A DNA stretch of 64,000 nt from a virus. The stretch is taken from the IMG/VR virus record IMGVR_UViG_3300045004_000088, positions 64,001-128,000 of that record, one strand, 5' to 3'. The notes beneath the pieces are model-generated. The model saw only the letters and a list, made by a program, of their open reading frames with translations. It did no database searches and had not been told where the DNA came from. This document shows positions 1,913 through 49,978 of the stretch, in pieces; position 1 is the first letter of the stretch, and each line of letters begins with the position of its first letter. Position numbers and translations under genes: made by a program.

Positions 1913-2525
1913 GAATCTTCACCTGCCGCGTTACCGCGAAGTCAAAAACAAATACTGTGTGTGCTACTTCGGGCCGTGCGACGAATACGTCACACTACTC
2001 GATGGCCTTCGGCCACAAGCCGAACAACAACTGCCCGGATTGCAAGTGTATATAGGGTGCAAAGAACACCTGTGCAACGGAGAACGGTTCGTCTCCGAAA
2101 AGGCGGCGTTTCAGATGGTCAGGGAACCGTGGGGGACACAATTCGGACATATCAAAGAGATCCGATGCGACATGAAATCACACCCTGTCCAGCAGTTCTT
2201 CAATGATTCGGGAATCAAGATCAACCCAACCGGACACAAACCGGACACGGAAAACAGACTCGTCAAGCTGGCGGCGGAAGGCATATCGCCTACCCGCTCA
2301 CTTACAGAAGAAGAAAAAACAAAGCTGACCAAGAAGTACGCCAGCCAGGGGTACGTCGTCCGAGAGGACTGTGACTGGCGTGACGCGGGCGTCGTTGTAG
2401 GGGTCGAATCGGTCGCTGTTTGGTCGGCCGCACTCGAAGGCAAAATGACGCACCTGTGCGACACCGGATTGGGGACGGGCTTCTTCCGCGTAATCTGTCC
2501 GTGGGGTGCGGTGATTTCTATTTGA
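1911..2525 (+). CDS. hypothetical Cys-containing protein
   Basis: The first ATG is at 1911 (MNLHLPRYREV...). The track ORF starts at a TTG at 1824. This start overlaps the divergent minus ORF start by 2 nt, so the start is uncertain. Confidence 0.3.
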   Translation: MNLHLPRYREVKNKYCVCYFGPCDEYVTLLDGLRPQAEQQLPGLQVYIGCKEHLCNGERFVSEKAAFQMVREPWGTQFGHIKEIRCDMKSHPVQQFFNDSGIKINPTGHKPDTENRLVKLAAEGISPTRSLTEEEKTKLTKKYASQGYVVREDCDWRDAGVVVGVESVAVWSAALEGKMTHLCDTGLGTGFFRVICPWGAVISI

Positions 2526-2579
2526 GTGCTTCTACATATAGACAGAAGACAGGGATTAGGCACCCCATCAAGGAGAACA

Positions 2580-3158
2580 ATGAGCGTATTTCGTGTAAAG
2601 CTGAACAACACTCAGCAGGGCGTATTGGACCTTAACCCGTCCACTGGCGCACAGATGTCGCCGTCGATTCAGCGGACGATGTGGGTCACCGGCCCGAACA
2701 AGACTTACCGTCAACTTTTCGACGGTGAAACCTTCACGGACTGCAACTATTGGAAGCAGTTCGCGTACCCGCAGACGACTCTGGAAAAGGCGTTCATCGA
2801 AGTCGTGACCGACGACGGCAGCATTTACTCCAGTGACCCGGCTGAGAACACCTTCCCTCGTGTTTACGACCTGACCATCGCTGGCGGTTCTGTGTACGCA
2901 TCGAACGTGATCGATGTAACGGGCGACAACGGCGCGGCGGCTGTTTCGGCGAGCATCGAGAACACGAGTGGTCAGGCGATCCGCGTGAAGATGAACGGTC
3001 TTTCGACGGCCATCTTCGACCTCTCGGCGAACGAAACCAAGACCTTCAACATCGGCGATGCCGTCATCAGCCGCTTGGAGTTCAACAACACCGCTTCCGG
3101 CGCGACCACGGCAACCGTGCAGGTCATCCTCACGATCCGCAGCACCCCGACAAGCTGA
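2580..3158 (+). CDS. hypothetical S/T/N/G-rich protein, possibly virion-associated
   Basis: ATG at 2580 is preceded by AAGGAG. The 193-aa product is rich in small and polar residues. It is followed by a rho-independent terminator at 3211..3238. Confidence 0.4.
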   Translation: MSVFRVKLNNTQQGVLDLNPSTGAQMSPSIQRTMWVTGPNKTYRQLFDGETFTDCNYWKQFAYPQTTLEKAFIEVVTDDGSIYSSDPAENTFPRVYDLTIAGGSVYASNVIDVTGDNGAAAVSASIENTSGQAIRVKMNGLSTAIFDLSANETKTFNIGDAVISRLEFNNTASGATTATVQVILTIRSTPTS

Positions 3159-3210
3159 GTACCACCCCTCGGTTTTTGAACCGATGTCTGCCCTTAATGG
3201 CCGGACAGAA

Positions 3211-3238
3211 AGCCCGACAGCAATGTCGGGCTTTTTCG
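3211..3238 (+). terminator. rho-independent terminator
   Basis: Stem agcccgac / gtcgggct with loop agcaat, followed by ttttcgtt. Confidence 0.55.
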
Positions 3239-3261
3239 TTTGAAGGCACTAAACTATAGTC

Positions 3262-4239
3262 ATGAAGATCAAGAGAAAGACACCTTCAAAAGCGCCGGCG
3301 TGGGGTCTTAGAGATTACTACGAGCGACGTGATAGGGTGCTGGTCGTTCGCGACGTTGGTGGCCTCGGCGACATCCTGATGCAAAGGATGATGTTCGAGA
3401 GCTTCAAACGTGTGATGCCCGAATGTCACATCACCTGGGCCGTCCCCCAACAATACTTGGAAGCCGCCGCGAGACATCCATTTGTTGACGAAGTGGTTGA
3501 CTGCCGCACCGTCAACAAAGCCGACTTCACCCTCGTCTACAACATCACCTTCGCGTGCGGCCGGTACGAGAACGCCATCGCACCCAGAGCCGACAAGCAC
3601 CGCAGCGACATCTGGGCCAACCACTGTGGCGTGGTAATTGGCAAGCACGAAATGTATCTCGGCGTAACGGCCGAAGAGAAGAAAGCCGCCCGTCAACTTC
3701 TGCAACGCAGCGTATCGAGTCCGAACGCTCCGATCTTGGCAATGTGTCCCGCGTCGGCTCAGATCGGCAAGGACATGTCGCCGGCACTACAGACGGAAGT
3801 CGTCACGCGAGTTTGGCAGAAGGGGTGCAACGTCGTTTGTCTGCACAACAAGTCCATGCCACACCTCGATCAGATCGGGTGCCGAACCTTGAGCGGCTTG
3901 AACACGCGACAGTGGATAACGGCACTGGACGCGGCCGACTACGTCTTGAGCGTTGACACGTCGGCGTTCCACTGCGCGGGCGGGCTGAAGAAACCGCTGG
4001 TGGGAATTTTTACCTACTGCGACGGAAAAGTGTACGGAAAGTATTTCGACTTCGTACTCGTTCAAAAGCACAGGGACGACAGCAACTGGGATTGCGGCCC
4101 GTGCTTCAACTGGTCGATGTGCAAAAAAGAGTGCAAGAAAACGATCAAGCCGTGTGCGAGCGAGATCACGTCCGACATGGTGATGGACGGTATAGAAAAA
4201 ATGATGGCGAAGTGGCCGTACAAGCCACAAATCGAATGA
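3262..4239 (+). CDS. glycosyltransferase family 9-like (ADP-heptose:LPS heptosyltransferase fold)
   Basis: N-terminal VLVVRDVGGLGDILMQ...ITWAV matches the GT9 (K/R)ILIV..S.GD.L...P...L signature. C-terminal SVDTSAFHCAGGLKKPLVGIF resembles GT9 GNDSGPMHLAAALGKPLV. Confidence 0.5.
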   Translation: MKIKRKTPSKAPAWGLRDYYERRDRVLVVRDVGGLGDILMQRMMFESFKRVMPECHITWAVPQQYLEAAARHPFVDEVVDCRTVNKADFTLVYNITFACGRYENAIAPRADKHRSDIWANHCGVVIGKHEMYLGVTAEEKKAARQLLQRSVSSPNAPILAMCPASAQIGKDMSPALQTEVVTRVWQKGCNVVCLHNKSMPHLDQIGCRTLSGLNTRQWITALDAADYVLSVDTSAFHCAGGLKKPLVGIFTYCDGKVYGKYFDFVLVQKHRDDSNWDCGPCFNWSMCKKECKKTIKPCASEITSDMVMDGIEKMMAKWPYKPQIE

Positions 4240-10906: not shown

Positions 10907-11422
10907 ATGTTCGAGCAGAAAGAAAAGCTGTTGATCGTCAACCACGTCATCTATCTGACCCCGGAGCAGCGAAAAACTCTGGTAGAGGAACGCCAGCAAG
11001 TTGCGGCTATCGGCATCAGCATCCCGGTGTGGTTCGATGACAACAAGGGATCGGCACCGGCGCGAGAAGTGTTCTGTCAGTACACGGTCACCAACGAACC
11101 GAAGACCCTGATGGTTGCCGTTACGCCGAGCGGCTACAGGATCAACCTGACGCAACCGAAGCCCGACGACGAGGAAACGCCGGATTACAAGAGACTGGGA
11201 AACAAAGAGGGGATGGGCTGGCTCAAGTTCAAACAACTCCAAGTGGTCGAAGCCCCCAACGGCAAAAAGAGCAAGGTGCTTCACTACGTCGAGATTCGGG
11301 ACTGGGAGTATTTCTGGGACTCCGTCAACTGGCGGGGCAGTACCGAAGTGACATGCCCATCCGCATGTTCACCGAGTCCCCAGACTGAACCGTTACCGGA
11401 TTCGTCAGCTTCGCGCTGCTGA
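10907..11422 (+). CDS. hypothetical protein
   Basis: 171-aa ORF with balanced composition. Confidence 0.4.
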   Translation: MFEQKEKLLIVNHVIYLTPEQRKTLVEERQQVAAIGISIPVWFDDNKGSAPAREVFCQYTVTNEPKTLMVAVTPSGYRINLTQPKPDDEETPDYKRLGNKEGMGWLKFKQLQVVEAPNGKKSKVLHYVEIRDWEYFWDSVNWRGSTEVTCPSACSPSPQTEPLPDSSASRC

Positions 11423-11855
11423 TCAATACGCCCGTCGTGTTTGGTTTATCTGACAAGAAGATGTTGCTGCACGGTCCCCAACTCCCGCCGACCGCCGAGA
11501 AGGTCACGATCTGACTCGACACCTGATGCACCCCGCCCGAAACCGTCATCGAGAAGCCGGTCGTAGAATTGACCGGCTGACGTGAATACCCGTTGATGAA
11601 CGGCTCGTTCTGCAAGCTCTCCATCGTATCGCCAATTGCCAGAATCGTCCTGTTGTCCAACCCCAAGTAGTAGTTGTTGGGGATGTATGTGTTCGGCGCG
11701 TTGCCGCCCAGGAACAGGGCGTTCAAAAGGAACTGCTCGCCCAGAAAGTGGAGTGTGTTGAGTACGTTCTCCTCGCGGTAGATCACGCAGCCGTCGCGGA
11801 CCTGTTCGAGAGAAAGAATCGTCATGATGCCGGGCCAGGGTTTCTTGGTTTCCAT
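11325..11855 (-). CDS. hypothetical protein
   Basis: 176-aa ORF rich in N, G and S. Its start faces a divergent intergenic region that carries a TATATAAG motif. Confidence 0.35.
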   Translation of the reverse strand: METKKPWPGIMTILSLEQVRDGCVIYREENVLNTLHFLGEQFLLNALFLGGNAPNTYIPNNYYLGLDNRTILAIGDTMESLQNEPFINGYSRQPVNSTTGFSMTVSGGVHQVSSQIVTFSAVGGSWGPCSNIFLSDKPNTTGVLISSAKLTNPVTVQSGDSVNMRMGMSLRYCPAS

Positions 11856-11906: not shown

Positions 11907-12176
11907 ATGACCTTCGCCGAGTACGTCAAAATGAGAGAGACGGCGGGCGATTCGTGGGGAACCGCACCCGCGCCTCCGGTCCAAATCATGTTGGGACCGA
12001 ACGCACCCATTGCCGGCAACACCAAAGGTGCCAGACCACCCGGCAAAGAAGAACAGTTCGGCAAAGAGAAGAAACGCAAAAAGCCGCCGCGAGAGATCAC
12101 ACAACCGAGCTACGACGACCGCGACCTAATAAAACGGAACATGTATAGGGCCAAAGAACTGGGTGTCAACCCGTGA
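11907..12176 (+). CDS. small basic protein
   Basis: AGGAG precedes the ATG at 11907. The product has a K/R-rich C-terminus (KEKKRKKPPREI). Confidence 0.35.
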   Translation: MTFAEYVKMRETAGDSWGTAPAPPVQIMLGPNAPIAGNTKGARPPGKEEQFGKEKKRKKPPREITQPSYDDRDLIKRNMYRAKELGVNP

Positions 12177-12177
12177 G

Positions 12178-12810
12178 TCACACGAAGCGGAAGACGGACC
12201 CGTATTCTTTGTAGAAGAGGATTTCGCCCGGAACGCCCGGCATATCGAGCATGTACTTCTTCCACCTCAACCACTTATGCCACAATTCCGGCTGGTTGGT
12301 CGGGATCATCGACATGATTTCTCTGAGCCGGTCGAACTCGTCCCGCTCGCTGTAAATCAGAGTGTACATCAAAGGCAAATAAACCCTGATGAACTCTCGC
12401 CAGACCCACGTCTCTTTGATGAAGAGTTGAGATTCCATCGACAGAAGCTTGTCGTAGAACCGAGTGTACTGATCGGCCGGCATGGGCTTGTTTCGGAAAT
12501 TGAGGCCGCTCGGTATGCCGATACCGTTGACCAAATTGAGAAGCCGGTGGTTGGGAATGATCACCGCATCACTGATAAAAACCTCGCCGCGTGGAATGAT
12601 CCGTTCCTGAATAGTTGGGAGCGATTGATTGTCTTCGCACTCGGTGAGATTCCATTGCCTGACCGCGATCTGATCGGGGTGGCGATAAGCGTCGTTCAAA
12701 GTAACAACCTTCCGGTCGCCACGCTCGCTTTCCAGGCAGAAAGAGCAAGGGACCGGAAGGTTGTTACGAAGATCTGTACTGCGAATGTAGAACTCCAAAG
12801 CCGCGATCAT
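12178..12810 (-). CDS. hypothetical Trp/Tyr-rich protein
   Basis: 210-aa ORF, co-directional with the poly-Asp and metallopeptidase genes. Confidence 0.4.
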   Translation of the reverse strand: MIAALEFYIRSTDLRNNLPVPCSFCLESERGDRKVVTLNDAYRHPDQIAVRQWNLTECEDNQSLPTIQERIIPRGEVFISDAVIIPNHRLLNLVNGIGIPSGLNFRNKPMPADQYTRFYDKLLSMESQLFIKETWVWREFIRVYLPLMYTLIYSERDEFDRLREIMSMIPTNQPELWHKWLRWKKYMLDMPGVPGEILFYKEYGSVFRFV

Positions 12811-12818
12811 TGCGCCTC

Positions 12819-13157
12819 TCAGAAGTTCACGTCATCGTCGTCGTCATCGTCATCGAAGTCGTCGTCGTCGTCATCGTCATCGTCATCATCCCAGTCGTCA
12901 TCGTCGTCTAGGTCGTCATCGTCTTCGTCATCGAAGTCGTCGTCATCATCCCAGTCGTCATCGTCGTCTTCGTCATCGAAGTCGTCATCGTCATCGTCAT
13001 CGTCATCGAGATCATCGTCGTCGTCCCAGTCGTCGTCATCGTCGTCTAGGTCGCCGTCGAAGTCATCATCGTCATCGACGCCCCCGCCGAATCCGCCGGG
13101 AACGCCGGACGACATCGCGTTCCGGTTCTTGTAATCGTCTTCTGGGAAAGCTGCCAT
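12819..13157 (-). CDS. extreme poly-aspartate acidic protein
   Basis: ATG at 13157. After a short N-terminal leader, the remainder is (D5-9 F/W/L)n: DDDDDFDGDLDDDDDDWDDDDDLDDDDDDDDDFDDEDDDDDWDDDDDF... Confidence 0.5.
   Translation of the reverse strand: MAAFPEDDYKNRNAMSSGVPGGFGGGVDDDDDFDGDLDDDDDDWDDDDDLDDDDDDDDDFDDEDDDDDWDDDDDFDDEDDDDLDDDDDWDDDDDDDDDDDFDDDDDDDDVNF
12838..13085. repeat. GAC/GAT (GTC/ATC) trinucleotide repeat tract with higher-order ~48-nt units
   Basis: gtcatcgtcgtcgtcatcgtc... repeated. Blocks such as cccagtcgtcatcgtcgtct..gtcgtcatcgtcttcgtcatcgaagtcgtc recur. Confidence 0.7.
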
Positions 13158-13177
13158 GATAGCCCTCTCTGGGTTGG

Positions 13178-14839
13178 TTAACACACCTTTTGACGGACGA
13201 CTTGGCAGCTTCGCACAGTACGAGAGCCGCACACTCGTTCGTTGACGTAGCACCCCAGTTTCGGTGGACGAACTGGAGGGTCTACTTTCTTCTTACAACC
13301 GGAGCAACACCCCGAATTGTTTTCTGGTTTCCACGGCTTACCAAACTCTGGCGCACCGGGCAAGGTGGCGTTGTTGAAGTAGCCGTCGTCGGAATTATAG
13401 CTGGTCCTCAGCAGCGAGCCTGATTCATCAACCTTGAAAACGTGGTGGTCCTTGACCGGCTCCCCGTGAAGGGTTACTAGGTCCGACTCCCAAATATAGT
13501 CAAGACCAAGTTTAACTTCATCGAGAATTTCCTCGTCTTCTGCGCCGTCTACGAACCCCGCCATGCCGAAGCCCTGAGCGACCAAAAGTTGCTCGTGCGG
13601 GACATCAACCTTACAGAAGTACAGCGGATTGTCAGACTGACCGACAATCATTGTATCCGCCAGTACCATCTGAGTGCTTTTTTCGCGAATCAAGAAATCC
13701 TGATCGCCGATCTTCACAGCCTTGTCGGTCGGCAAAACCTCGACGCTTTCGGTCGAGGCCGCACGAACCGTGGTCAACCCCCACGTCGCAAAAACGCTCG
13801 CAACTTCAGTTGCGTAAGGCCCGGTAGCGAGTTCTGTCAACATGGTACTCGCAATTGAAGCCATGTACCTCGGAGTCAGCGGGGCGTTTTGTACCGCACG
13901 GAACAAAACCGTAGCCATTTCGTCGCGTGCGATGATCAGTGCTTCGCGTGTGCCGATACCGCCCGGTGCCTTCACTTTGGCGTAAACGGCCATGATCGCA
14001 GCGTAAAACGCACTGCTGAACACGCGGCTGAAACTGTGGACCTCGCTGGACAACTGGTTCTTCGGCGCAGATCTCGGCAGTGTGGCCGGATCGATGTAGT
14101 AGTACGGAACCGAAGCGTCACGCAGCCCGCCGATCACCCCGTTGATCGCATAGCCCAGATCCGGTGCTACGGACGACGCAATGGTACTGCTTTGGGCCGC
14201 GTCCATCTGCTGTGCAGTATAGGTCAAAACCGGGTCAATCGACATCGCATGCAGGATCGAGCCGCAGTCGGCGAACGCTTCGTGAAACGCACCCTGTTCA
14301 ATGAATGGAGTATTGAACAGCACGGGCTTCAAAGAGTCAAGTACCGAGTGAAAGAATTCGTGGGTGACCACGTCGTTCGACAAACAGGTGTGGACCACCT
14401 GCCCGTTCACAGGGTTCCGGCCCGTGAAGAACTGCAACGACTCGCGATTGTAGAAGGCGTTCAACTGGTTCCCGGCGTTCGGGTAAACGCGAAGAACTTT
14501 GACCGCCGCCCACTTCGGGAGCGTGCCGAGGTACTTCTTCAACATCCTTTGGGCCGAGCAGAGCGTAGCCATGCAGTTGGCCGCGAGCGCCTGTGGTGAG
14601 TTCGGATCGGGGGAATAACCCTTGTAGTTCTGAACGGAAAACGGCGGGTCCGGGTTCTCGGTCGGAACCTGAACGTTTTGGATGAAGGGGGTGTTTGACT
14701 CCTCGTCCATGAAGAAACGGATCTCACCGTCACGGCGGATCACGCTCTCTGAAGGGGTAGGGGTTGGCGGGCGAGACGGACCATACGGGCGTCTGTTCTG
14801 CTGTGTCTGCGTCACTGCTAGGTTTTTCTTGGTTTCCAT
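13178..14839 (-). CDS. zinc metallopeptidase, thermolysin-like (gluzincin), with Cys-rich C-terminal tail
   Basis: VVTHEFFHSV is an HExxH motif. The downstream GAFHEAFADCGS matches the M4 third-ligand motif (NEAxSD). The C-terminus is SGCCSGCKKK...GCYVNERVCGSRTVRSC. Confidence 0.55.
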   Translation of the reverse strand: METKKNLAVTQTQQNRRPYGPSRPPTPTPSESVIRRDGEIRFFMDEESNTPFIQNVQVPTENPDPPFSVQNYKGYSPDPNSPQALAANCMATLCSAQRMLKKYLGTLPKWAAVKVLRVYPNAGNQLNAFYNRESLQFFTGRNPVNGQVVHTCLSNDVVTHEFFHSVLDSLKPVLFNTPFIEQGAFHEAFADCGSILHAMSIDPVLTYTAQQMDAAQSSTIASSVAPDLGYAINGVIGGLRDASVPYYYIDPATLPRSAPKNQLSSEVHSFSRVFSSAFYAAIMAVYAKVKAPGGIGTREALIIARDEMATVLFRAVQNAPLTPRYMASIASTMLTELATGPYATEVASVFATWGLTTVRAASTESVEVLPTDKAVKIGDQDFLIREKSTQMVLADTMIVGQSDNPLYFCKVDVPHEQLLVAQGFGMAGFVDGAEDEEILDEVKLGLDYIWESDLVTLHGEPVKDHHVFKVDESGSLLRTSYNSDDGYFNNATLPGAPEFGKPWKPENNSGCCSGCKKKVDPPVRPPKLGCYVNERVCGSRTVRSCQVVRQKVC

Positions 14840-17811: not shown

Positions 17812-18234
17812 TCAAGAGTGGAGCATTCTGAGGTTATCCGCATCAGTGCGGCTCTGCAAGATCTGTTCTTCGAGGAAGATTTCGATGACGCGGCCGTTTA
17901 CGCCGCCGAGTTGTTGCGCCTGTTCGAGCCGCTCGACGTAGTTCGCGACCACTTCGGTTTCCATGTCGTAGGCGTACTTGACAGCGGTCTTCGGGTCGTC
18001 AAAAACGGGCATGCCCTTCGGGATCACGGAGATGTGACCGCCGAGTCCGATGATGAGGTCTTGGAACTGCTGGACGTGTTTCATTTCGCTCGCGGCCTCG
18101 TCCAAGAACAGTTCCCGAATCTCTTGCCTGTGCAGCCCGATCAGCGTAGCCGAGTTCTGGAGGTAGAACATCATGTGACCCATCTCGTTTGCCAAGTCGT
18201 TTTGCAAAAGGCCGATCATCGTCTTCAAGTCCAT
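17812..18234 (-). CDS. ferritin-like / bacterioferritin-like protein
   Basis: ATG at 18234. NDLANEMGHMMFYLQNSA and EAASEMKHVQQFQDLIIGLGG parallel the bacterioferritin di-iron helices (ELIAINQYFLHARM; EE..EMKHADKLIERILFLEG). Confidence 0.55.
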   Translation of the reverse strand: MDLKTMIGLLQNDLANEMGHMMFYLQNSATLIGLHRQEIRELFLDEAASEMKHVQQFQDLIIGLGGHISVIPKGMPVFDDPKTAVKYAYDMETEVVANYVERLEQAQQLGGVNGRVIEIFLEEQILQSRTDADNLRMLHS

Positions 18235-18329
18235 CGCCGAACCTCCTTCAAATGCGTTGCAGTGCAACTAGATAAGCAATCGAGGCAGAAAGATCCTCAA
18301 TTATAGAGACGTTTCCAAACAGGAGAACC

Positions 18330-20255
18330 ATGCCAACAACTCCCTCCAAGTGGCGGGGTCAGTACAAGTCGCTCAAGGAATACTACGACAACGTGGTCTA
18401 CACCAAAGACGATCACGAGGTCGAAGCCCGGCCGGAACTATTGGGGCAGAAGAAGTTCCCGGCCGAATACTTCGAGTTCGACCGCTTCCAGTACGCAATC
18501 GACCCAGACGAGACGATGGAAGAGGTCGATGCTTACTCAAAAGCGAGACAAGACCAAGAAACCATCAAGTGTAAATACAGCTTTTCCTACTGGTGTCAGA
18601 AGTACGTCAAGATTCTTCACCCGATGAAGGGTTTGATCCCCTTCATGCTCTACAAGTACCAGAACAAGGTAATCCGCGACTACGAAAACAACCGCTTCAA
18701 CATCATCTCGAAGTTCCGGCAGGGTGGGCTGACGACGGTGACGCTGATTTGGGGTCTGTGGCGGGCGCTGTTCCAGACCGACCAGCAGATCATGTTGCTG
18801 TCCAAGACAGACCGCGAAGCGACGGACATCGGGATGATCGTGGACCGCGTCGTGGAATACCTGCCGTCGTGGATGAAGCCGGACAAGAATGCGGGCAAGT
18901 GGAACGACCACTTGAAGCAGATCAAAGAAACCGGCGGCGCTCTCAAATTCTACTCGCCGGAAGCTGCCCGTGGTAAGTCGGTGACGTTTCTCATCATTGA
19001 CGAAGCGGCCTTCATCGACAACATGGAGTCGCACTGGAAGGCTATGTGGCCGGTGCTTTCCACAGGTGGTAGCTGTACGCTCGTGTCAACGGTTAACGGC
19101 CTCGGTAACTGGTACGAAGAAACTTTCCACGGGGCCAAAGAGGGTCGAAACAAGTTCCACGTCATCGAGTTGGACTACTGGGAACACCCCGATTACAACG
19201 ATCCGGTTTGGGTTGAAGACCAGAAGGCACAGCTTGGCGAACGCGGTTTCGCCCAGGAAGTTTTGCGTTCGTTCCTCGGCTCCGGTGAAACGTATATTCC
19301 GCCGCACATTCTGGCAGAACTCGACCGCCAGACACGAGATCACACGCCGATCCGCAAGGCGTTCAAACAGTGGACGAACAAGGCGACTCGTGCCGAAGAC
19401 GTTGAAGCAGTCAAGGGACTGGCGCGGAACGAAAAAGAGATGGAGAAGTTGGACAATACGCCGGGGCTGGTGGCGTTCCAGCGTGGCGCGTTGTGGATCT
19501 GGCGAGAAGCCATCGAGGGTCACGAGTACATCGTGTCCGCTGACGTGGCCGAAGGTATGGGCGAGAACGGCGACAACTCCAGTTTCCAAGTCATCGACTG
19601 TGCGACTCTGGAGCAGGTGGCCGAGTTCTACTCGAACACGGTGCCGCCCTACATCTTCGCCCAGATTCTGAACGAGATCTCGTTGTACTACAACACCGCG
19701 TTACTCGTGGTCGAAGACATGGGTCCGGGTGTTGCCGTCTTGAGCAACCTTCAGAATGAGTTGTTCTACGAGAACATGTACTACGACGAGAAGGGTGCGA
19801 AGACCGGCAAGGCCGGCATCAAGATGTCTCGCGTCAACCGGCCGATCATCCTCGAAGCTCTGCAACAGCGAATCTTGACAGGCACGGTACAAATCAACTC
19901 TCGCCGTCTGGTCCGCGAGTTGAAAACGTTGGAGTATAACCCGACGACGAAACGTGCGGAAGCTCAGAAGGGCAAGCACGACGACGCGGTCATGGCGTTG
20001 GCAATGGCGCTCTACGTCCGCGACCAGATCATGCGGGACATCCCGATGGGTGCCGACGTACCGAGCGAAGTCATGGACACCTTCAAGAGTCAGACTTACG
20101 AAGACATCAAGAGGGAGATTCTCGAAGGCGCTCCGAAGAACTGGATCGAAGAGGCACCCGACTTCTTGGCGGGCGAGCGTGGCGGCATATTGCCGGGCAT
20201 CATCCTGAACCACCGACGCAAATTCGACACACTGCTCAAGGAATTCGGCTGGTAA
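18330..20255 (+). CDS. terminase large subunit (T4 gp17-like)
   Basis: AGGAG precedes the ATG. ISKFRQGGLTTV is Walker A-like and TFLIIDEAAFI is Walker B. The 641-aa length and its position heading the head module fit. Confidence 0.8.
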   Translation: MPTTPSKWRGQYKSLKEYYDNVVYTKDDHEVEARPELLGQKKFPAEYFEFDRFQYAIDPDETMEEVDAYSKARQDQETIKCKYSFSYWCQKYVKILHPMKGLIPFMLYKYQNKVIRDYENNRFNIISKFRQGGLTTVTLIWGLWRALFQTDQQIMLLSKTDREATDIGMIVDRVVEYLPSWMKPDKNAGKWNDHLKQIKETGGALKFYSPEAARGKSVTFLIIDEAAFIDNMESHWKAMWPVLSTGGSCTLVSTVNGLGNWYEETFHGAKEGRNKFHVIELDYWEHPDYNDPVWVEDQKAQLGERGFAQEVLRSFLGSGETYIPPHILAELDRQTRDHTPIRKAFKQWTNKATRAEDVEAVKGLARNEKEMEKLDNTPGLVAFQRGALWIWREAIEGHEYIVSADVAEGMGENGDNSSFQVIDCATLEQVAEFYSNTVPPYIFAQILNEISLYYNTALLVVEDMGPGVAVLSNLQNELFYENMYYDEKGAKTGKAGIKMSRVNRPIILEALQQRILTGTVQINSRRLVRELKTLEYNPTTKRAEAQKGKHDDAVMALAMALYVRDQIMRDIPMGADVPSEVMDTFKSQTYEDIKREILEGAPKNWIEEAPDFLAGERGGILPGIILNHRRKFDTLLKEFGW

Positions 20256-22183: not shown

Positions 22184-24742
22184 ATGACACCAGTTTGGGC
22201 AGACTTTTTCAAGATCTTCACCTACCAGTTCGCTCCCGACCCCTACAGCAGACGGGCGAACACACGCGACCTTTCGGGTGCCGGCGTAACACAGCCGGAC
22301 GCCATCCCGATGATGGGGCCGGACGGCAGCATGTCCGGCAGCGGCGACTCCCGCCTCGTCAGGTTCCGCGATACCAATGAAATGATCGACCTCTCGTCGG
22401 TCAGTAACCGCCAATCACGATACAAGGAATACCAAAGACTTTTGGGCGTCCCAGAGATCGACCGCGCGTTGACAGTGTTCGCAGACGAAGCCTGTCTCGC
22501 GGGGTGGACGAAGGTGCAAACGCCACATGGCGAATTCACAATCGAGCAACTCGCCAAGACGCGGGCCAACGACCGCTTCCTCGTCTACTGCTACGACCAC
22601 AAGGCCGAGGACTACACTCTTGGGTGGGCTTACGCTCCGAGGAAAACCAAGACCGCCAAAACGCTTCAACTGGTCTTCGACAACGGCAAAATCCTGACGC
22701 TCACACACGACCACCGGATCATGACCGGCAAAGGAACATACGTTCAGGCTAGTGATGTGAAGATCGGCGATGAGATGATGCCGTTCTATCGGCTGCGTCC
22801 GAACCCCGAATTGAACAAATTGAAAACCGGGCAACAGCCGAGGATCTACTCGCACCGCAAAGGGTGGATCAACGAGCGGCAGTTCGTTGACGATTGGAAA
22901 TCCGGCAAGACTCAAGAGCGGTACGAGGAGGCCAACAAGATCTCCCGGCTCGCGGCCGGCGGCTTGGTCATGGAGCAGATCCTGAAACAGATCCCGCATG
23001 ATTGGAAGACGATCAAATTGCGGCTGGCGCGGACTGGCTTCACATACAAGGAGTTGAAGAAACTCGGCGAGAAAGAAAAAACCAGACGCATCGTTGACAT
23101 CCGGCCGGGGCCGGAAATTGATGTGTACGACATGAGCGTGGAGAAGCACGAGAACTTCTGCACAGACAGCATCGTGGTACACAACTGCCAGAAGGATGAG
23201 TTCGGCAACCTGTTTAAGATCGAGTGCAGCAACCGCGAGGTCGTTGAAGAGGCGAAGCACTTCTTCTTCCACCGTCAAATGTTGAACATGAACCGCAAGG
23301 CGTGGGCCGAGTTCAGGAAGCTGTGTTTGTTGGGCGACCTGTTCTGGGAGGCGATCATCAACCCGGAGCGGCCGGGCGACGGCATCGCGAACTTTGCCAG
23401 CTTGCCGGCCGAGTCGATGTACCGCATCGAAACAACGAAGGGCAAGCTGATCGAGTTCCAGCAGGCGCGAGAGGGGCCGGACTACAACGCCCTGGTCCGT
23501 GCGCCGATCATGCAGGCCAATGACGCCGAAATTGCACAAAGCACCGCCATTCGGTTCGCGCCGGAACAGATCGTTCACATCAGGATCGGCGACAACCGAA
23601 AAACGTTCTACCCGTATGGCGTCTCGCTGGTTGAACCCGCTCGCGGTCCAGCACACCAGTTACGTTTGATGGAAGACGCGATGTTGGTGTACCGGCTTTC
23701 GAGAAGCCCGGAGCGGCGTGTATTTTACATTGACGTTGGACAACTCCCACCGTTCAAGGCAGAGGCGTTTGTCGAGCGTCTGAAGGACCAATTCAGGAAG
23801 AAGAAGGTGGCGACCAACAGGTCGCCGTATCAAGGCGCGAACCAAGTGGAAGAAAGGTGGCACGCCCCGGCCGTGGACGAGGACTACTGGTTGCCGATTC
23901 GCGGCGACTCGCAGACCAAGATCGACACGTTGCCGGGAGCGCAGAACCTCGGCGAGATCGATGACGCCGTATACTTCCGTAATAAATTGTTCGTAGCATT
24001 GAACTTCCCTCCGAACTACCTGAGCAACGAAGACCCGAACGCAACGAGGATCACGTTGTCGGCTCAGGACGTGAAGTTCGCGAGGATGATCGAACGGTTG
24101 CAGGGCCACTTCGAGGACGGCCTGTGGGAAATGTTGGACAGACACCTGCAAATGATCGGGTATCCACCTGATGTGTACGACGACTTGGTGATCAAGATGA
24201 CGCCGCCAAGCGATTGGCGTGAACTGAGCCGTGCGGAGACGACGAACAACCGGGTGACGACGGCGAGCAGCCTGAAGTCGGCCCAGTTGATGTCGGACTA
24301 CGACGTTCACATTCGGTATCTGCGTCACTCCGAGGAAGAAACCGAGGAAATGATCGCGAGGCTAAAGATTCAGAAACTTGAGGAACTGAAGCTGCAAATC
24401 TTGGCACAGAACCCGCAACTATTGGGCGTGGGTACTCCGGGTACTGAAGGCCAAGACGGGCAGGAAATAGGATCTCAGGCCGGTGGTCCGAGTCCGATGT
24501 TGGGTGGTGACCCGGCAGCGGGCGGGGCTGGCGGTGCTGCACCGCCTCCGGGTGGTGGACTGGCGGCTGAGGAACCGCCGGAAGGTGGTCCTGGGAACGC
24601 GACACCGGACGCGCAGAAACCTCAAGGAAAGCCGCTCGCCGATCCTGAAGAAGAGGAGATCATGAAGTACGATCTCGAAATTCAGGACTACGACGCTGAA
24701 CAAGATGTGGAAGACATCGACTACAGCGTAAACAACGAGTGA
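22184..24742 (+). CDS. portal protein (T4 gp20-like), intein-containing precursor
   Basis: The extein aligns with T4 gp20. [33 protein letters not shown] parallels [74 protein letters not shown] parallels [42 protein letters not shown]. The C-terminal tail is acidic. Confidence 0.85.
   Translation: [852 protein letters not shown]
22493..23185 (+). mobile_element. intein (231 aa) inserted in the portal gene
   Basis: Block A is CLAGWTKV, starting with Cys. Block B is [11 protein letters not shown]. Blocks F/G are [12 protein letters not shown]...VVHN, followed by the +1 Cys (CQKDEF). The flanking exteins are continuous with the T4 gp20 alignment. Confidence 0.7.
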
Positions 24743-28139: not shown

Positions 28140-29990
28140 ATGAAGAGAAAACTGATCAAGTACGACGCATTCCGCCACATCGAAAACGATTCGCTGTCGG
28201 CGGCTGAGGTCGAACTCGCAGAGGCACAGGAAGTATTGTCAACTGCTCTGGGTGTTGACGGTCTTAACCTACACTGCTTCGGTGAAACCGATGTAACATA
28301 CGAAACCCCAGACGGCGAGTTCGTCCACGCCAGCTATTCATTGAGCAAAGACAACTTGGTGTTCGAGAACATCGAGCAATTGGTGATCGATGACGAGAGC
28401 GAGAGGGGCGAAGCCCGCAAGATCCTGACCGACTTGGTCGAGAGCTTGTTCGAGGAAAACGAAGGCAAGGCCGCTGGTCTGTTCGACCGCTACATGGCTC
28501 TGCCTCACACCCGCAAGAACTTGAAGGAAGCGACGATGAGCGAGGGCAAGTTCGCCTTCGGCAAGTCGAACCCGTCCGGCAAGAAGGCGTGGAACAAGGG
28601 CAAGAAGGAAGATCCGGCGACGACCAAGAAGCGGATCAAGTCCGGCCTGTTCACCAAGAGCCACATGAGCGACTCCGAGAAGAAGTCCCACAAGAAGGCT
28701 TCCGAAGCATTCAAGAAGGGTACTGGTGGCAACCCACGCGCACGTCTCTACGCCCGCAAGGTGAAAAAGAGCAAGGTCAACGAGTGGAATACGCTCTCCG
28801 AGAACGTGTTGCAGTACGTCAAGTTCCAGCAGTTGGGCGGGGTGCTTCGTGAAACGAAGTTGCGTCACGACGAGAAGGGCAACGTGGTTGCCGTCGCAGT
28901 GCCGACCGCACAGGTTCGGAACGAGGGCAAACTGTTGAGCTTCAACTGGAAGGTTCTCGACCACGAGATCAAGTACAGCCGCAACGGTGCCAAGAACATT
29001 CAGAACGAGGCGGCATTCGCCCGTGCGATTTCGGACCTGAAGCGTTACAACGCGATCTCCGACAACGCCGGTCTTGAGACGACTTTGGAAAACATTGTCG
29101 CAGCTTGGCCGCAGCTTCTGTACCTGACCCACCAAGAGTTGAGCGAGCGTATCGCACAGGCGTTGGATACGGCCGGCGTTCAGAAGTACGACGACCAGAT
29201 GTGTGACTTCATGGCAGAGGGCATCCTCCGCATGGCTCACCACGCCTACACCGACCGCGCCGACAAGATCGTGAAGATCAGCCGGATGAAGGGCGAGGGC
29301 GACGACGCCTACTCCGCGTTCCGCAGTGTGGCCGACAAGTTCCTCCCGCAAGTGGACGAAGCCGAGAACGCCCAGTACCGCGTGTTCGCGGATCTCTACA
29401 AGGCGTTGAACGAGTTCTACGAAGTCGTTCAGAAAGAAGGCGACGAGGCCACGAAGCAGGAAGTGTTCGCCTACATGAAGGACTGCGAGAGCGTCCTGAA
29501 CCGTCAGGACGAGCCGGACTTGGATCTGGCCGAGAACATCGCGACGTTCCTCCAGTCGCTGGTCGAGACGAACATCGACGGCGAAGAGTGGAACGTCTCC
29601 AACAGCACACACATCAGCATCAACGGCGACCACCCGCGCATGGCTCAACTTGCCAGTTGGGGATACACGCCGTCGAAGGACTTCTCCGGTGACTGGGGTT
29701 CGGAGATGCCGGTTTCGGACGGTAAGAACCCGCGCAACGCGGCCGAAGTCGAGAAGATGAAAAACTCTTGGGCCAACATCGGTGGTAGCGATACCGCACC
29801 GGAGTTGAAGAACCCATACGTCCCGCAACCGTTCGGTGATTACAAGATCAAGGGCGAGAAGTTTGTGGGCGACGATGACGCGACCGGCGAATGGGGTAGC
29901 AAGGACACATGGCCGGGCCTTCAGAACCCGTATGTACCGGACTCGGTTCGTCCTCCGATGAAGAGTGACAACCTCGTTCAAGACAAGTGA
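28140..29990 (+). CDS. large K/E-rich head-module protein (position of T4 prohead core proteins gp67/gp68)
   Basis: 616 aa, immediately upstream of the gp21 homologue. The C-terminus has repeated NPYVP motifs. Function is inferred from position only. Confidence 0.4.
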   Translation: MKRKLIKYDAFRHIENDSLSAAEVELAEAQEVLSTALGVDGLNLHCFGETDVTYETPDGEFVHASYSLSKDNLVFENIEQLVIDDESERGEARKILTDLVESLFEENEGKAAGLFDRYMALPHTRKNLKEATMSEGKFAFGKSNPSGKKAWNKGKKEDPATTKKRIKSGLFTKSHMSDSEKKSHKKASEAFKKGTGGNPRARLYARKVKKSKVNEWNTLSENVLQYVKFQQLGGVLRETKLRHDEKGNVVAVAVPTAQVRNEGKLLSFNWKVLDHEIKYSRNGAKNIQNEAAFARAISDLKRYNAISDNAGLETTLENIVAAWPQLLYLTHQELSERIAQALDTAGVQKYDDQMCDFMAEGILRMAHHAYTDRADKIVKISRMKGEGDDAYSAFRSVADKFLPQVDEAENAQYRVFADLYKALNEFYEVVQKEGDEATKQEVFAYMKDCESVLNRQDEPDLDLAENIATFLQSLVETNIDGEEWNVSNSTHISINGDHPRMAQLASWGYTPSKDFSGDWGSEMPVSDGKNPRNAAEVEKMKNSWANIGGSDTAPELKNPYVPQPFGDYKIKGEKFVGDDDATGEWGSKDTWPGLQNPYVPDSVRPPMKSDNLVQDK

Positions 29991-30007
29991 CCCACTACAG
30001 GAGACTA

Positions 30008-30685
30008 ATGGAAGATCGCTTGCTGATCGACTGCTGCACCAACGGCCATCTCTTCACTCTTAACTTGAACGAGTCAACCACCCGCACGGGTGGGCTGACT
30101 CGCTTCAAGGGTAAGTTTCAGGAAGCCGACGCGGTCAACAAAAACAAAAGGTCGTATCCGTTCAGGGTGCTGGACGAGAACGTGAAGAAACTCGTTGAGT
30201 GTGTGAAGGCTCGCGGTCTTATTGGTGAGTTGGATCACCCGACCGACAGCATCATTCACTTCGAGAAGGCGTCCCACGTCATCACGAAGTTGTGGTGGGA
30301 AGGTAAAGTCCTCATGGGCGAGGGCGAGATCCTCAACACGCCCCACGGCAACATCCTCAGAAGCCTTATCAGTGACGGTGTTCGCATCGGCATTAGTAGT
30401 CGTGGTGTTGGCAACGGCACGGTAGACGAGAACGGCATCCTCGTTATTGGGGAGTCCTATAAGCTCATCACCTTCGACGCCGTCGCCGATCCGTCAACTT
30501 TTGCAGCCTTCCAAGAGAAGGTCGTCGGCAAAAGTGAGGCTTTTGAATATCAACCCGTGGAAACTGTTACGAAAAAGACAAGCAGCGGCATACATAACTC
30601 TACGATCAACAAAGACGCGCTGATCGCCTGCTTGGGCGGATTCGTCAGGCACCAGACTTCCAAGATTAGAGCGAGGTTAAACTAA
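30008..30685 (+). CDS. prohead core protease (T4 gp21-like)
   Basis: Direct similarity to T4 gp21. VNKNKRSYPFRVL parallels VNRNKRLYPKRIL. GELDHP parallels GELNHP. LWWEGKVLMGEGEI parallels MWWKGNDVYGRARV. GISSRGVGN parallels GVSSRGLGS. AGGAG precedes the ATG at 30008. Confidence 0.8.
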   Translation: MEDRLLIDCCTNGHLFTLNLNESTTRTGGLTRFKGKFQEADAVNKNKRSYPFRVLDENVKKLVECVKARGLIGELDHPTDSIIHFEKASHVITKLWWEGKVLMGEGEILNTPHGNILRSLISDGVRIGISSRGVGNGTVDENGILVIGESYKLITFDAVADPSTFAAFQEKVVGKSEAFEYQPVETVTKKTSSGIHNSTINKDALIACLGGFVRHQTSKIRARLN

Positions 30686-31635: not shown

Positions 31636-33108
31636 ATGAACGCAAACGCAAAGTTCCTGAACGAAGCGCGGGAGTTGGAATCTCGTTGGGGTCGCACTGG
31701 ACTTCTCAATGGCATCGAGGACAGGTACGTCCGCTCTGCCACGGCAGTATTGCTTGAGAACCAAAGACTCATGAACGAGGTTTCGACCGACACCTCAGAC
31801 ATCGCTCAGTTCAAGAGAATCTCGATTCCGCTGGTACGCAGAATCTACCCGCAACTGATTGCCAACAAGATCGTGTCCGTGCAGCCGCTGCTCGGCCCGA
31901 CTGGTCTGGTGTACTACCTCCGCTTCCGCTACTCGTCCAACAAGGGCGCGATCCGTGGTGCGGACAACAACGGCGGCTTCCCCGGCGACGACGCCAACTC
32001 GCTGATGCAGCGGGCTGACGGTACGGCGAACCTCGACATATTTTTCACTCACCAGTTCGTTCAGAACGAGTCTACCTCGACTGACGCCGGTGCGGTGACA
32101 ACTGCGACCTACGCCCCGCTGGAACACACCCCGGTCCTCGCAGGCACCATGACGGGTACGGTCTACGTCGGCTCGACCGCCGTTCAGACCTACGTCGTGT
32201 CCTCGACTGGCGTGTTCACCTTCACGGCAATCGGCTCGCCGACCGTGTTCGCGAACACCACTGGTGGCACGGCCACTGGTACTGGCGTGGCTGGTACGAC
32301 CCTGAACGTCACCACGGGTGAAATGACGGTCGTATTCAACTCCGCTCCTTCGAGCAACCACCTCGTATTGTCATACGAGTATAACATGGAGTGCAACCAA
32401 GACCTCCCTGAGATCAACTTGGTGATCGAGTCGGAAGAGATCGCGGCGAAGACCCGCAAGCTCAAGGCCGTGTGGAGCTACGAAGCTCAACAAGACCTCC
32501 GCTCGCAGCACAACCTCGACGCGGAAGCGGAACTGACGGCGGTTCTGGCGCAAGAAATCAACCTTGAGATTGACCGCGAAGTTCTTACTGACCTTCGTAA
32601 CAACGCTGGTACAATCGCCGCGTGGGACTTCAACACCGCGCTTGGTGAAACGATCAAGGAAAAGTACGAATCTCTGTACGTCAAGATCGTTGAGATCTCG
32701 GCAGTCATCCACAGGAAAACCCTGCGTGGTGGTGCCAACTGGCTCGTGACCTCGCCAGAAGTGGCGTCGATCTTCGAGACGGCGACGGCAGGTTTCGCAC
32801 CGGCACCAAGTGAAACATTCACCTCGTCACTGGGTATCCAGTACGTTGGTACGGTCAACAACCGTTGGCGTTTGTACAAAGATCCGCTCTTTCCGACGAA
32901 TCAAATTTTGCTTGGGTACAAGGGAGATTCGTACATGGATTCGGGTTACTTCTACTGTCCATATGTACCCTTGACGCAGACCCCGGTCGTGTTGGACCCA
33001 GAGAGCTTCTGCCCGCGTAAGGGAATCCTCACACGTTATGGCAAGAAATTGCTCCGCGAAGGCTCAAAGTTCTACGGACGTATGAGCATCGCAAACTTCG
33101 TGATCTGA
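31636..33108 (+). CDS. major capsid protein (T4 gp23-like)
   Basis: EEIAAKTRKLKAVWSYEAQQDLRSQHNLDAEAELTAVLAQEINLEIDREV parallels T4 IEAKSRQLKAAYSIELAQDLRAVHGMDADAELSGILATEIMLEINREV. LGYKGDSYMDSGYFYCPYVPLT parallels VGYKGPNEMDAGIYYAPYVALT. Confidence 0.85.
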   Translation: MNANAKFLNEARELESRWGRTGLLNGIEDRYVRSATAVLLENQRLMNEVSTDTSDIAQFKRISIPLVRRIYPQLIANKIVSVQPLLGPTGLVYYLRFRYSSNKGAIRGADNNGGFPGDDANSLMQRADGTANLDIFFTHQFVQNESTSTDAGAVTTATYAPLEHTPVLAGTMTGTVYVGSTAVQTYVVSSTGVFTFTAIGSPTVFANTTGGTATGTGVAGTTLNVTTGEMTVVFNSAPSSNHLVLSYEYNMECNQDLPEINLVIESEEIAAKTRKLKAVWSYEAQQDLRSQHNLDAEAELTAVLAQEINLEIDREVLTDLRNNAGTIAAWDFNTALGETIKEKYESLYVKIVEISAVIHRKTLRGGANWLVTSPEVASIFETATAGFAPAPSETFTSSLGIQYVGTVNNRWRLYKDPLFPTNQILLGYKGDSYMDSGYFYCPYVPLTQTPVVLDPESFCPRKGILTRYGKKLLREGSKFYGRMSIANFVI

Positions 33109-49166: not shown

Positions 49167-49978
49167 CGAGTCTTCCTTTTCTTCGGTTGCGGTACGCCCG
49201 CAAGAATCAAGGCTTCGGCGAACACGTCGCCTCTGTGTACTGTGTGCGACGGATAATATTTCTCAACGGGAGTTGACCCCCCGCCGTGTTCCGATCCGTC
49301 AGCGGCAGGGGTTGCCGGTGTAGCAGGAGTCGCAGGGGTTGCCGGTGTAGCAGGAGTCGCCGGTGCAGCAGCACCACGCTCGGCTTCGTCTTCGGAGCGA
49401 ACGTCGGCCAATTTACCTTCGAGTTCCTGAACGTAGTTCGGGTCACGCTTGATGGCGTCCGCGACGTGTAGTAACTGGGAGTGCTGGCCGAGTTCTTTCA
49501 TCTTTTCCAAGACGGCGTGTAGCTCGTCGCGGAAATTATCATAGCCGGCGGCGTCACCGCCCTCTTGTTGGTACTCGTCGGGAATGTGGATCGTCTTGAC
49601 GACGCTATCGACTTTGGTGATGGCCTTCACAGCCTTGTCGAAGTTCTTGGCCGCGCCACCGCCACTAAACAGATCGTTGAGCCAACCGAGGAACGAACCG
49701 TGTTGGACTTTGTTGGCCGGACGTGCGCCGGGCTTATCGCCGTCACCACCAGCAGCCGGGGCATCCGGCGAACTTCCGCCGCCTGACGGTGGGTGAGGTT
49801 CGTCTTCGAGGTAAATGGATTCGAGGAGAGGTCCGTAGAGGCCGGGGTATCGAGCCTCTACGAAATCGAGAACGAATTTTTCCGGGTCGTTGGTCTTACG
49901 AGCCAGTTCGTTCGCCAGCTTGCCGACTGACATCAAACTCTTGCGATCCGACAGGTAAGATCTGAATGTGAGCATCAT
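49163..49978 (-). CDS. hypothetical protein with (ATP)n repeat
   Basis: It contains AAPATPATPATPATPATPATPAADG, encoded partly by a perfect 27-nt tandem duplication at 49306..49359. Confidence 0.4.
   Translation of the reverse strand: MMLTFRSYLSDRKSLMSVGKLANELARKTNDPEKFVLDFVEARYPGLYGPLLESIYLEDEPHPPSGGGSSPDAPAAGGDGDKPGARPANKVQHGSFLGWLNDLFSGGGAAKNFDKAVKAITKVDSVVKTIHIPDEYQQEGGDAAGYDNFRDELHAVLEKMKELGQHSQLLHVADAIKRDPNYVQELEGKLADVRSEDEAERGAAAPATPATPATPATPATPATPAADGSEHGGGSTPVEKYYPSHTVHRGDVFAEALILAGVPQPKKRKTR
49306..49359. repeat. perfect 2x27-nt tandem repeat
   Basis: caggggttgccggtgtagcaggagtcg occurs twice in tandem, coding TPATPATPA on the minus strand. Confidence 0.8.

Follow-up and report, generated by a model that had tools for sequence, protein, structure and literature searches.

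A 64,000-nucleotide stretch of viral DNA (positions 64,001 to 128,000 of the IMG/VR record IMGVR_UViG_3300045004_000088; hereafter the window) carries, at 12819..13157 on the minus strand, a gene for an extreme poly-aspartate (polyAsp) protein. On sequence grounds the window is assigned to an uncultured T4-like huge phage. We are highly confident that the polyAsp gene is real, that its product is a stand-alone and almost certainly intrinsically disordered polyanion, and that it is the middle gene of a conserved module of three, between the genes for a zinc metallopeptidase and a 210-amino acid protein. The parts of the module are as follows.

13178..14839, minus strand: zinc metallopeptidase of 553 amino acids, first gene of the module, with HEFFH at residues 160-164 and HEAFAD at residues 186-191.
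13178..13342 (stop codon included), minus strand: basic Cys-rich tail of the peptidase, 54 amino acids with 12 K/R, 3 D/E and 7 Cys, net charge +9.
13163..13169, minus strand: Shine-Dalgarno-like GAGAGGG, read from the sequence, 5 nt before the polyAsp ATG.
13077..13157, minus strand: N-terminal leader of the polyAsp protein, residues 1-27 (MAAFPEDDYKNRNAMSSGVPGGFGGGV).
12831..13076, minus strand: polyaspartate tract, residues 28-109, with 69 D and 2 E and with 4 F, 3 L, 3 W and 1 G.
12819..12830, minus strand: C-terminal V-N-F and TGA stop, the protein ending in ...DDDDDDDDVNF.
12178..12810, minus strand: 210-amino acid protein, third gene of the module, from a family of 243 cluster representatives.

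The open reading frame (ORF) encodes 112 amino acids, among them 71 Asp (46 GAC and 25 GAT codons) and 3 Glu. The 74 acidic residues are opposed by 2 basic ones, which gives a net charge of -72 at an Asp content of 63%. The complete sequence reads MAAFPEDDYKNRNAMSSGVPGGFGGGV-DDDDDFDGDLDDDDDDWDDDDDLDDDDDDDDDFDDEDDDDDWDDDDDFDDEDDDDLDDDDDWDDDDDDDDDDDFDDDDDDDD-VNF. Across 16 reference genes taken from the window, Asp accounts for 6.2% of residues; at this share, the probability of finding at least 71 Asp in 112 residues comes to about 1e-56. Among the ORFs of the window with 60 amino acids or more, this one alone exceeds 30% D+E. An earlier reading of this DNA from the sequence alone had described an extreme poly-aspartate protein, and the composition bears this out. 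It had also described a leader followed by runs of 5-11 Asp punctuated by single F, W or L. The leader (27 residues) and the single F, L or W residues are present, but the runs extend from 1 to 11 Asp, most of them at least 5, and one G and two E also interrupt them. A stable fold is implausible at 63% Asp, and no other domain was found in the 112 residues. As a query in protein searches the sequence gave 8000 candidates and not one significant match, composition correction stripping the signal. All three genes are on the minus strand: the polyAsp gene starts 20 nt past the peptidase stop, co-directional with and directly downstream of the metallopeptidase gene as first described, and ends 8 nt before the ATG of the 210-amino acid protein.

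The sequence-only reading had itself raised two objections to the gene, namely that the tract might be an assembly artefact or that the poly-Ser frame of the opposite strand might be the expressed one. We regard either as barely credible. The plus-strand ORF at 12163..13134 is open over 323 codons, and in one relative (locus L010, 5627..6025, minus strand) the JGI annotation took the antisense frame over the Asp frame. The GAY tract of the window is open in one sense and two antisense frames; as such tracts are naturally open in several frames of both strands, a plus-strand poly-Ser ORF is expected by construction. Changes between GAY codons and between the complementary TCR codons are synonymous in both frames, so substitution patterns within the tract cannot settle the strand. 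Other features argue for the Asp frame. The poly-Ser ORF crosses the entire conserved 210-amino acid gene in antisense, a gene with 243 family representatives and a confidently predicted fold, and in locus L007 the Ser frame is without any start codon upstream of the tract. Close relatives keep the ATG, the ribosome-binding site, a recognizable leader and the C-terminal x-N/G/D-F of the Asp frame, with GAGAGG or GAGG preceding the polyAsp ATG also in L003 and L006-L009. The poly-Ser ORF is thus taken to be an antisense by-product of the GAY tract and the 210-amino acid gene, and the polyAsp gene to be a genuine minus-strand gene. Moreover, the exact polyAsp protein was called on nine contigs from at least two samples, the contig classes reaching 0.2-1 Mb; L001, L002 and the window share the same tract DNA, two independent JGI samples being represented, and the window peptidase is also found on a contig of 475,914 bp. 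This repeated recovery shows that the tract is not an assembly artefact.

The repeat structure of the tract was also analyzed. Tandem Repeats Finder reported for 12830..13082 imperfect arrays with periods of 6, 12, 27 and 45 and 68-74% matches. The autocorrelation was flat, with values of 0.61-0.72 at all multiples of 3 and of 0.613 at 48, and the longest exact repeat was 30 nt, spaced 60 nt; the higher-order unit of about 48 nt that had been proposed from the sequence was therefore not recovered. GAC and GAT codons are interleaved, the longest run of a single codon being (GAC)5. A long perfect repeat tract, as in simple-sequence contingency loci, is not present in the polyAsp tract.

It is highly improbable in our view that the gene is a contingency locus in which the tract serves length variation by replication slippage. 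One GAC codon separates L015/L017 from L016, in which 1 of 2697 flanking bases differs, and short-read assemblies break within the tract; the codon difference is sited at contig ends. Against slippage stand the (GAC)5 maximum and the GAT share of the tract codons (35% compared with 25% genome-wide), which interrupts the repeats, the identical tract DNA in two samples, and the length of 106-127 amino acids, held even where the peptidases of the lineages share only about 30% identity. The excess of GAT and the constant length argue against selection for slippage. Of the earlier description of the tract as slippage-prone, the single natural codon difference is thus a weak trace, set against short codon runs and a length that is nearly constant across deep divergence. 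Free variation in frame, also suggested earlier, gives way to a length and charge that look stabilized. In four or more lineages (L006/L014, L009, L011 and L015-L017), Logan and SPAdes contigs come to an end within the tract. Elsewhere the window contains a perfect 27-nt tandem duplication (2.1 copies, 49305..49360) and a 24-nt repeat (2.8 copies, 80% matches, 60726..60796).

Relatives of the locus were recovered with the peptidase and the 210-amino acid protein as queries. An acidic ORF adjoins homologues of one or both proteins in 18 phage lineages, with peptidase identities falling from 100% to about 30%; D-rich proteins at the same position in related phages, a search for which had been proposed at the outset, were found. 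A close clade with peptidases 51-100% identical comprises L003, L006/L014, L007, L008, L009, L010, L011, L015-17 and L053, whereas L012, L013, L056, L057 and LR756511.1 are distant lineages (peptidase about 30% identical). In an independent approach, a DNA pattern for D5-F-D5 was scanned over 2.9 million viral contigs and returned 34 contigs. This pattern alone led to L041 (533 kb), L035 (223 kb) and L020/L050 (245 kb), and hmmsearch found the polyAsp ORFs of all of these flanked by homologues of the peptidase and the 210-amino acid protein. Further stand-alone polyAsp ORFs occur in L046 (7018..7329), L048, L037/L049 and L045, including large viral contigs (320 kb and 356 kb); neither a peptidase nor a 210-amino acid gene was found near them in the fetched stretches, and the L046 protein terminates in DDDF.

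Wherever the acidic gene was seen with upstream sequence, a peptidase gene was found within 600 bp of it, and in most lineages the acidic stop and the start of the 210-amino acid gene are 0-18 nt apart or overlap as ATGA, which suggests that the two genes are translationally coupled. LR756511.1 carries the peptidase and an acidic gene of 106 amino acids and lacks the 210-amino acid gene, in L013 two genes of the opposite strand separate the peptidase from the acidic gene, and the neighborhood of L052, a peptidase homologue of bacterial type, is another one and contains no acidic gene.

What is conserved in the acidic protein is its bulk. Twelve of the 14 complete copies have 106-127 residues and net charges of -68 to -90 (medians 113.5 amino acids and -72.5), the two exceptional copies being 75 and 83 amino acids long; the tract itself has about 85 residues and -75 charges. 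Glu partly substitutes for Asp in L053 and L056. In a subset of ten lineages, the 158 non-acidic tract residues comprised 55 F, 42 L, 14 W and 8 Y (about three quarters F/L/W/Y), with a median spacing of the hydrophobic residues of 5-9 positions, 6-8 in most lineages. One substitution in an Asp codon (GAY) yields N, H, Y, A, G, V or E, whereas F, L and W need two or three. The one-step neighbors N, H, Y, A, G and V account for 28 of the 158 residues and His for none, implying that the punctuation is selected and is not mutational noise. The leader has the consensus MAxLLENDxKxxxAPxxAG in the close clade and is weakly but recognizably conserved across nine relatives. A C-terminal Phe follows the tract throughout the close clade (VNF, VNF, ENF, PGF, VDF, EVNF); distant members of the module are without it. 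These patterns show selection on length, charge and hydrophobic punctuation and not on sequence.

Neither blastn with the region nor tblastn with the 210-amino acid protein gave a match among 50,697 phage records, and the peptidase matched only LR756511.1 and one fragment. By this search, no cultured phage carries the module. LR756511.1 is a published genome of an uncultured huge phage (595,163 bp), unannotated and syntenic with the window. Identities between the two were 79% for the major capsid protein, 56% for the portal, 53% for the large terminase and 30% for the peptidase. Thus, the module evolves faster than the core genes, which fits a role in interaction with the host.

Because length and charge are conserved, the intact chain is taken to be the functional unit, and the conserved position in the module, together with these properties, favors a function of the intact chain that is tied to the peptidase module. 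Tentatively, as the most favored of the readings considered and yet a plausible rather than a probable one, we propose from the analogies given below that the chain may act with this module as a nucleic-acid-like polyelectrolyte decoy. Its charge density would let it compete with DNA or RNA for the basic grooves of host proteins that bind nucleic acids; nucleoid proteins, polymerases and defense nucleases are candidate targets. The solvent-exposed F, L and W residues would serve as stickers that add affinity through hydrophobic pockets beside such grooves. [quoted passage not shown] Given its co-transcription and tight coupling with the peptidase and 210-amino acid genes, the polyAsp protein probably acts jointly with their products, perhaps as a bait or regulator through which the peptidase would meet the targets that the chain has bound.

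The peptidase itself has its catalytic residues intact. H160, E161, H164, E187 and H268, which cover the HExxH motif and downstream Glu of the zinc site and a catalytic His, are invariant in 18 homologues. A profile of these homologues matched the fungalysin Mep (7z6t, E=2e-7) and, weakly, thermolysin (about 0.1); Pfam assigned PF02128 (M36) to 9 of the 18 and PF01447 (M4) to 5. The window peptidase alone gave no match in Pfam, PHROGs or NCBIfam. The enzyme is accordingly best described as a probable distant relative of the M36 (fungalysin) and M4 (thermolysin) families, and such enzymes favor bulky hydrophobic residues at P1'.

This preference bears on a second reading, to which we give a smaller but real chance: that the adjacent peptidase has in the polyAsp protein its own dedicated substrate, or else its regulator. 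As a substrate it would be diced into about 10-13 peptides consisting of a hydrophobic residue and Asp(5-11); as a regulator it would inhibit the enzyme competitively until needed, by filling the active site or by chelating Zn/Ca. The proximity of the peptidase gene wherever upstream sequence was seen, the intact catalytic residues, the restriction of the punctuation almost entirely to F/L/W/Y, which match the textbook P1' preference, and the peptidase-acidic pair of LR756511.1 that persists without the 210-amino acid gene are all consistent with it. However, conservation of length and net charge is unexpected if only cut sites count, and to judge by the conserved leader and C-terminal Phe, both ends of the intact chain would matter. 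Furthermore, we know of no preference of thermolysin for Asp at P1 and P2', which we count against the substrate form. The production of N-degron peptides for ClpS by cleavage at P1' was considered and set aside; acidic residues beside the N-terminal one weaken ClpS binding.

The third protein of the module has no family assignment. The consensus N-terminus of its family is MNLAIEYL.R...PCSLFL. A model built from a 55-sequence alignment (pLDDT 90.9, pTM 0.86) predicted a beta-sheet domain and a helical bundle, for which no match was found among PDB and BFVD structures, so that the protein apparently has a novel fold. None of 16 long family members was fused to an acidic tract. A search with an alignment of the 210-amino acid protein retrieved nothing from genome contigs and two short contigs only from metagenome contigs; the 55-sequence alignment was too divergent for finding loci. 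The basic tail of the peptidase is invariant between the window and L003, and in L012 (6519..6842) and L057 (2916..3209) it is a separate small ORF placed directly upstream of the gene for the acidic protein, which it may complement in charge as a partner.

Several observations weigh against the proposal of a decoy acting with the module. The near-obligatory linkage to a peptidase is not explained by a simple decoy. The peptidase and the 210-amino acid protein are not basic overall (pI 5.8 and 6.3), and apart from the +9 Cys-rich tail there is no obvious basic partner inside the module. The polyAsp protein matched no mimic or anti-defense family in Pfam, PHROGs, NCBIfam or PADLOC. Its disorder, almost certain as it is, is deduced from composition alone. 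The acidic proteins of two lineages are much weaker (net -32 and -39), and in L055 the peptidase gene is followed by the 210-amino acid gene and the acidic gene is absent, which counts against the substrate or regulator reading as well. Finally, the window has a single copy of the T4 late-promoter motif TATAAATA, which lies away from the module, and a scan for sigma-70 promoters gave hits at chance level only.

The phage setting of the module introduces further alternatives. It is sited between the terminase side and genes for a PD-(D/E)XK exonuclease and a Toprim primase. The relevant features of the window are listed below; a scaffold protein gene is also present.

18330..20255: T4-type large terminase.
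22184..24742, plus strand: gp20-like portal with intein (Pfam Intein_splicing at residues 154-334, Portal_T4 at residues 360-724).
29987..30685: gp21-like prohead protease.
31636..33108: gp23-like major capsid protein.
17812..18267, minus strand: ferritin/Dps-like gene adjoining the large terminase gene, with a weak NCBIfam DPS match in the window.
10907..11422, plus strand: Gp80-like fiber gene near the module.
11325..11855, minus strand: gene for a 171-amino acid protein, convergent with the Gp80-like fiber gene.

In the portal gene, the intein match falls upstream of the Portal_T4 match. The fiber gene and the gene for the 171-amino acid protein share about 98 nt where their 3' ends meet, and do so likewise in L001, L007, L008 and L010.

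With a T4-like head gene set in the same window, the polyAsp protein might be a capsid-internal or assembly component, similar to the prohead core proteins of T4 with their N-terminal targeting and gp21 processing; we consider this unlikely. In T4, the core contains gp67, gp68 and internal proteins, which are small, targeted to the prohead and processed by gp21 (PMC9958956). In most polyAsp leaders of the close clade, residues 4-7 include a hydrophobic-x-Glu triplet (LLE, FLE, ILE, FPE), the scaffold protein of the window has a similar ILE at residues 4-6, and a fiber-like gene of the Gp80 family lies nearby. A motif of three residues is, however, too short to serve as evidence, and it is absent in the distant members. 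The polyAsp gene is outside the head module, about 9 kb from the portal and on the opposite strand, among primase, exonuclease and small genes, and a chain with a charge of -72 beside packed DNA would be electrostatically unfavorable.

More doubtful still is a buffer or sink for Mg2+, Ca2+ or polyamines, comparable to eukaryotic polyAsp Ca-binding proteins, which would tune ions for replication, packaging or the Ca/Zn-dependent peptidase. The extreme charge density and the conservation of about -75 charges would suit this role, and all relatives keep a ferritin/Dps-like gene at a distance of a few genes: Pfam Ferritin matches the counterparts in L006-L012, next to the terminase in the close-clade loci, and in the fetched stretch of L012 the ferritin gene was seen and the terminase was not. 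But such a buffer would need a very high copy number, the selected F/L/W/Y punctuation, the leader and the terminal Phe would go unexplained, and no phage precedent was found in the literature. Whatever likelihood is left by all the readings considered here belongs to something else.

Proteins of this kind are not confined to phages. The D5-F-D5 pattern was found on at least 120 bacterial and archaeal contigs. Among the matches listed, 39 loci are small stand-alone ORFs (53-161 amino acids) with a short leader and an acidic tract containing F/L/W/Y. These loci belong mostly to Planctomycetota and Spirochaetota; multi-megabase contigs and cultured isolates are among them. Neither the peptidase nor the 210-amino acid gene stands beside any of the 39. 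When ten of the bacterial proteins were sampled, nine gave no meaningful Pfam family and the tenth was a LysW-like zinc ribbon with an acidic tail. The polyAsp gene follows scpB on the same strand in four loci of Planctomycetia (L156, L063, L134 and L171), overlapping the scpB stop by 4 nt in L156 (ScpB 2161..2916, polyAsp 2913..3302), and it stands beside rsfS, nadD and obg in Treponema-type genomes (L112, L129, L132, L149, L152 and L165). Judged from these loci, extreme polyAsp proteins are not unique to this phage, whereas the peptidase module appears to be.

Returning to the decoy proposal, a wider and rather speculative extension, less likely than the proposal itself, would join these observations into an undescribed host-takeover module of bait, adaptor and peptidase and an unrecognized class of prokaryotic polyAsp proteins. 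The disordered bait with its charge of about -75 would capture cationic host proteins that bind nucleic acids, such as nucleoid proteins and defense nucleases, and together with the 210-amino acid adaptor would pass them to the thermolysin-like peptidase; alternatively, the bait itself would be diced into peptides of a hydrophobic residue and Asp(n). The class would consist of stand-alone polyanionic disordered proteins of 75-145 amino acids with spaced F/L/W/Y. The scpB-coupled proteins of Planctomycetia would be examples, and huge phages may have taken these over or may imitate them.

Known from earlier work is the type of disordered acidic mimic or decoy; the three-gene module is undescribed. 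The analysis defines it as an unannotated unit of thermolysin-like peptidase, polyAsp protein and protein of apparently novel fold that recurs in huge phages as large as about 600 kb, with the peptidase-acidic pair contained in the published but unannotated LR756511.1, and it draws attention to a wider group of small polyAsp proteins, likewise unannotated, in bacterial chromosomes. Because the tract breaks in short-read assemblies and gene callers sometimes take the wrong strand, the family is under-represented in catalogues, and in those from short reads the gene is systematically truncated. The function of the polyAsp protein is what we infer; the striking feature is that polymer properties are conserved without sequence. 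If this is true, evolution conserves here only length, about -75 charges and sticker spacing, at an identity of the enzymes of about 30%, and the module would offer a clean natural system for target recognition by disordered polyanions.

The literature was searched for polyaspartate proteins in phages and nothing relevant was found, so comparison was made with systems that share parts of the design. T4 prohead core proteins share with the polyAsp protein a T4-like phage lineage and small size. Their genes, in contrast, are in the head cluster, the polyAsp gene is in the peptidase module, and homology was not detected. T7 Ocr (116 amino acids) and similar small, highly acidic phage proteins are reported to compete with DNA for DNA-binding enzymes (PMC3439906, PMC7261183). 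The polyAsp protein resembles proteins of the Ocr/ArdA/Arn type in its high acidic density and near lack of basic residues. The fold of Ocr, however, sets carboxylates like the phosphates of B-DNA, and the polyAsp tract is probably too low in sequence complexity to fold. PADLOC defense models matched no protein of the module.

For eukaryotic acidic activation domains and D/E-repeats, function is reported to be conserved without sequence conservation (PMC9241528; PMC10250230, PMC6294567), and the acidic exposure model holds that aromatic and Leu residues stay open to binding owing to the acidity (PMC9241528). The polyAsp protein likewise has aromatic and Leu residues set in acidity and disorder. 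The eukaryotic domains are nevertheless parts of larger proteins and far less extreme. To our knowledge, no coactivator-like target exists in bacteria.

Closer likenesses are found in Bacillus phage SPO1 and in SSBs. Residues 56-122 of SPO1 Gp44 are disordered, contain 57% D/E and no basic residues, are modeled as a mimic of single-stranded DNA and bind beta/beta' of RNA polymerase (PMC8208478). Both are disordered acidic chains encoded by phages, that of Gp44 having about 67 amino acids. The acidic domain of Gp44 is placed between a DNA-binding N-domain and a C-domain, whereas the polyAsp protein is stand-alone with a leader of 27 amino acids; it lacks the three-domain architecture, gave no PHROG match, is more extreme (63% Asp, -72), has spaced F/L/W and belongs to a peptidase module. 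The acidic tails of SSBs (T7 gp2.5, E. coli SSB) are reported to bind basic patches of partner enzymes (PMC12339929; PMC3936761), and papers cited in PMC12339929 are given there as reporting the terminal Phe to be essential. A T7 gp2.5-like SSB (phrog_112, E=5e-45) in L023 (IMGVR_UViG_3300009095_000028) terminates in DDDDDFDDDDDFD. Asp runs ended or interrupted by Phe are common to these tails and the polyAsp protein, as is, in the close clade, an acidic stretch with a C-terminal Phe. The terminal Phe was considered as the mark of an SSB-tail decoy and is treated as a resemblance only, since the distant members of the module lack it. SSB tails have 8-26 residues and are tethered to an OB-fold; the polyAsp chain is free, has about 85 residues with 10-13 such motifs, and the 112-amino acid protein is without an OB-fold single-stranded DNA-binding domain. 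No homology having been found and the architectures of folded mimics and tethered tails being different, the polyAsp protein is outside every described family; by analogy, it would work most like the disordered acidic mimic domains and the tails of SSBs.

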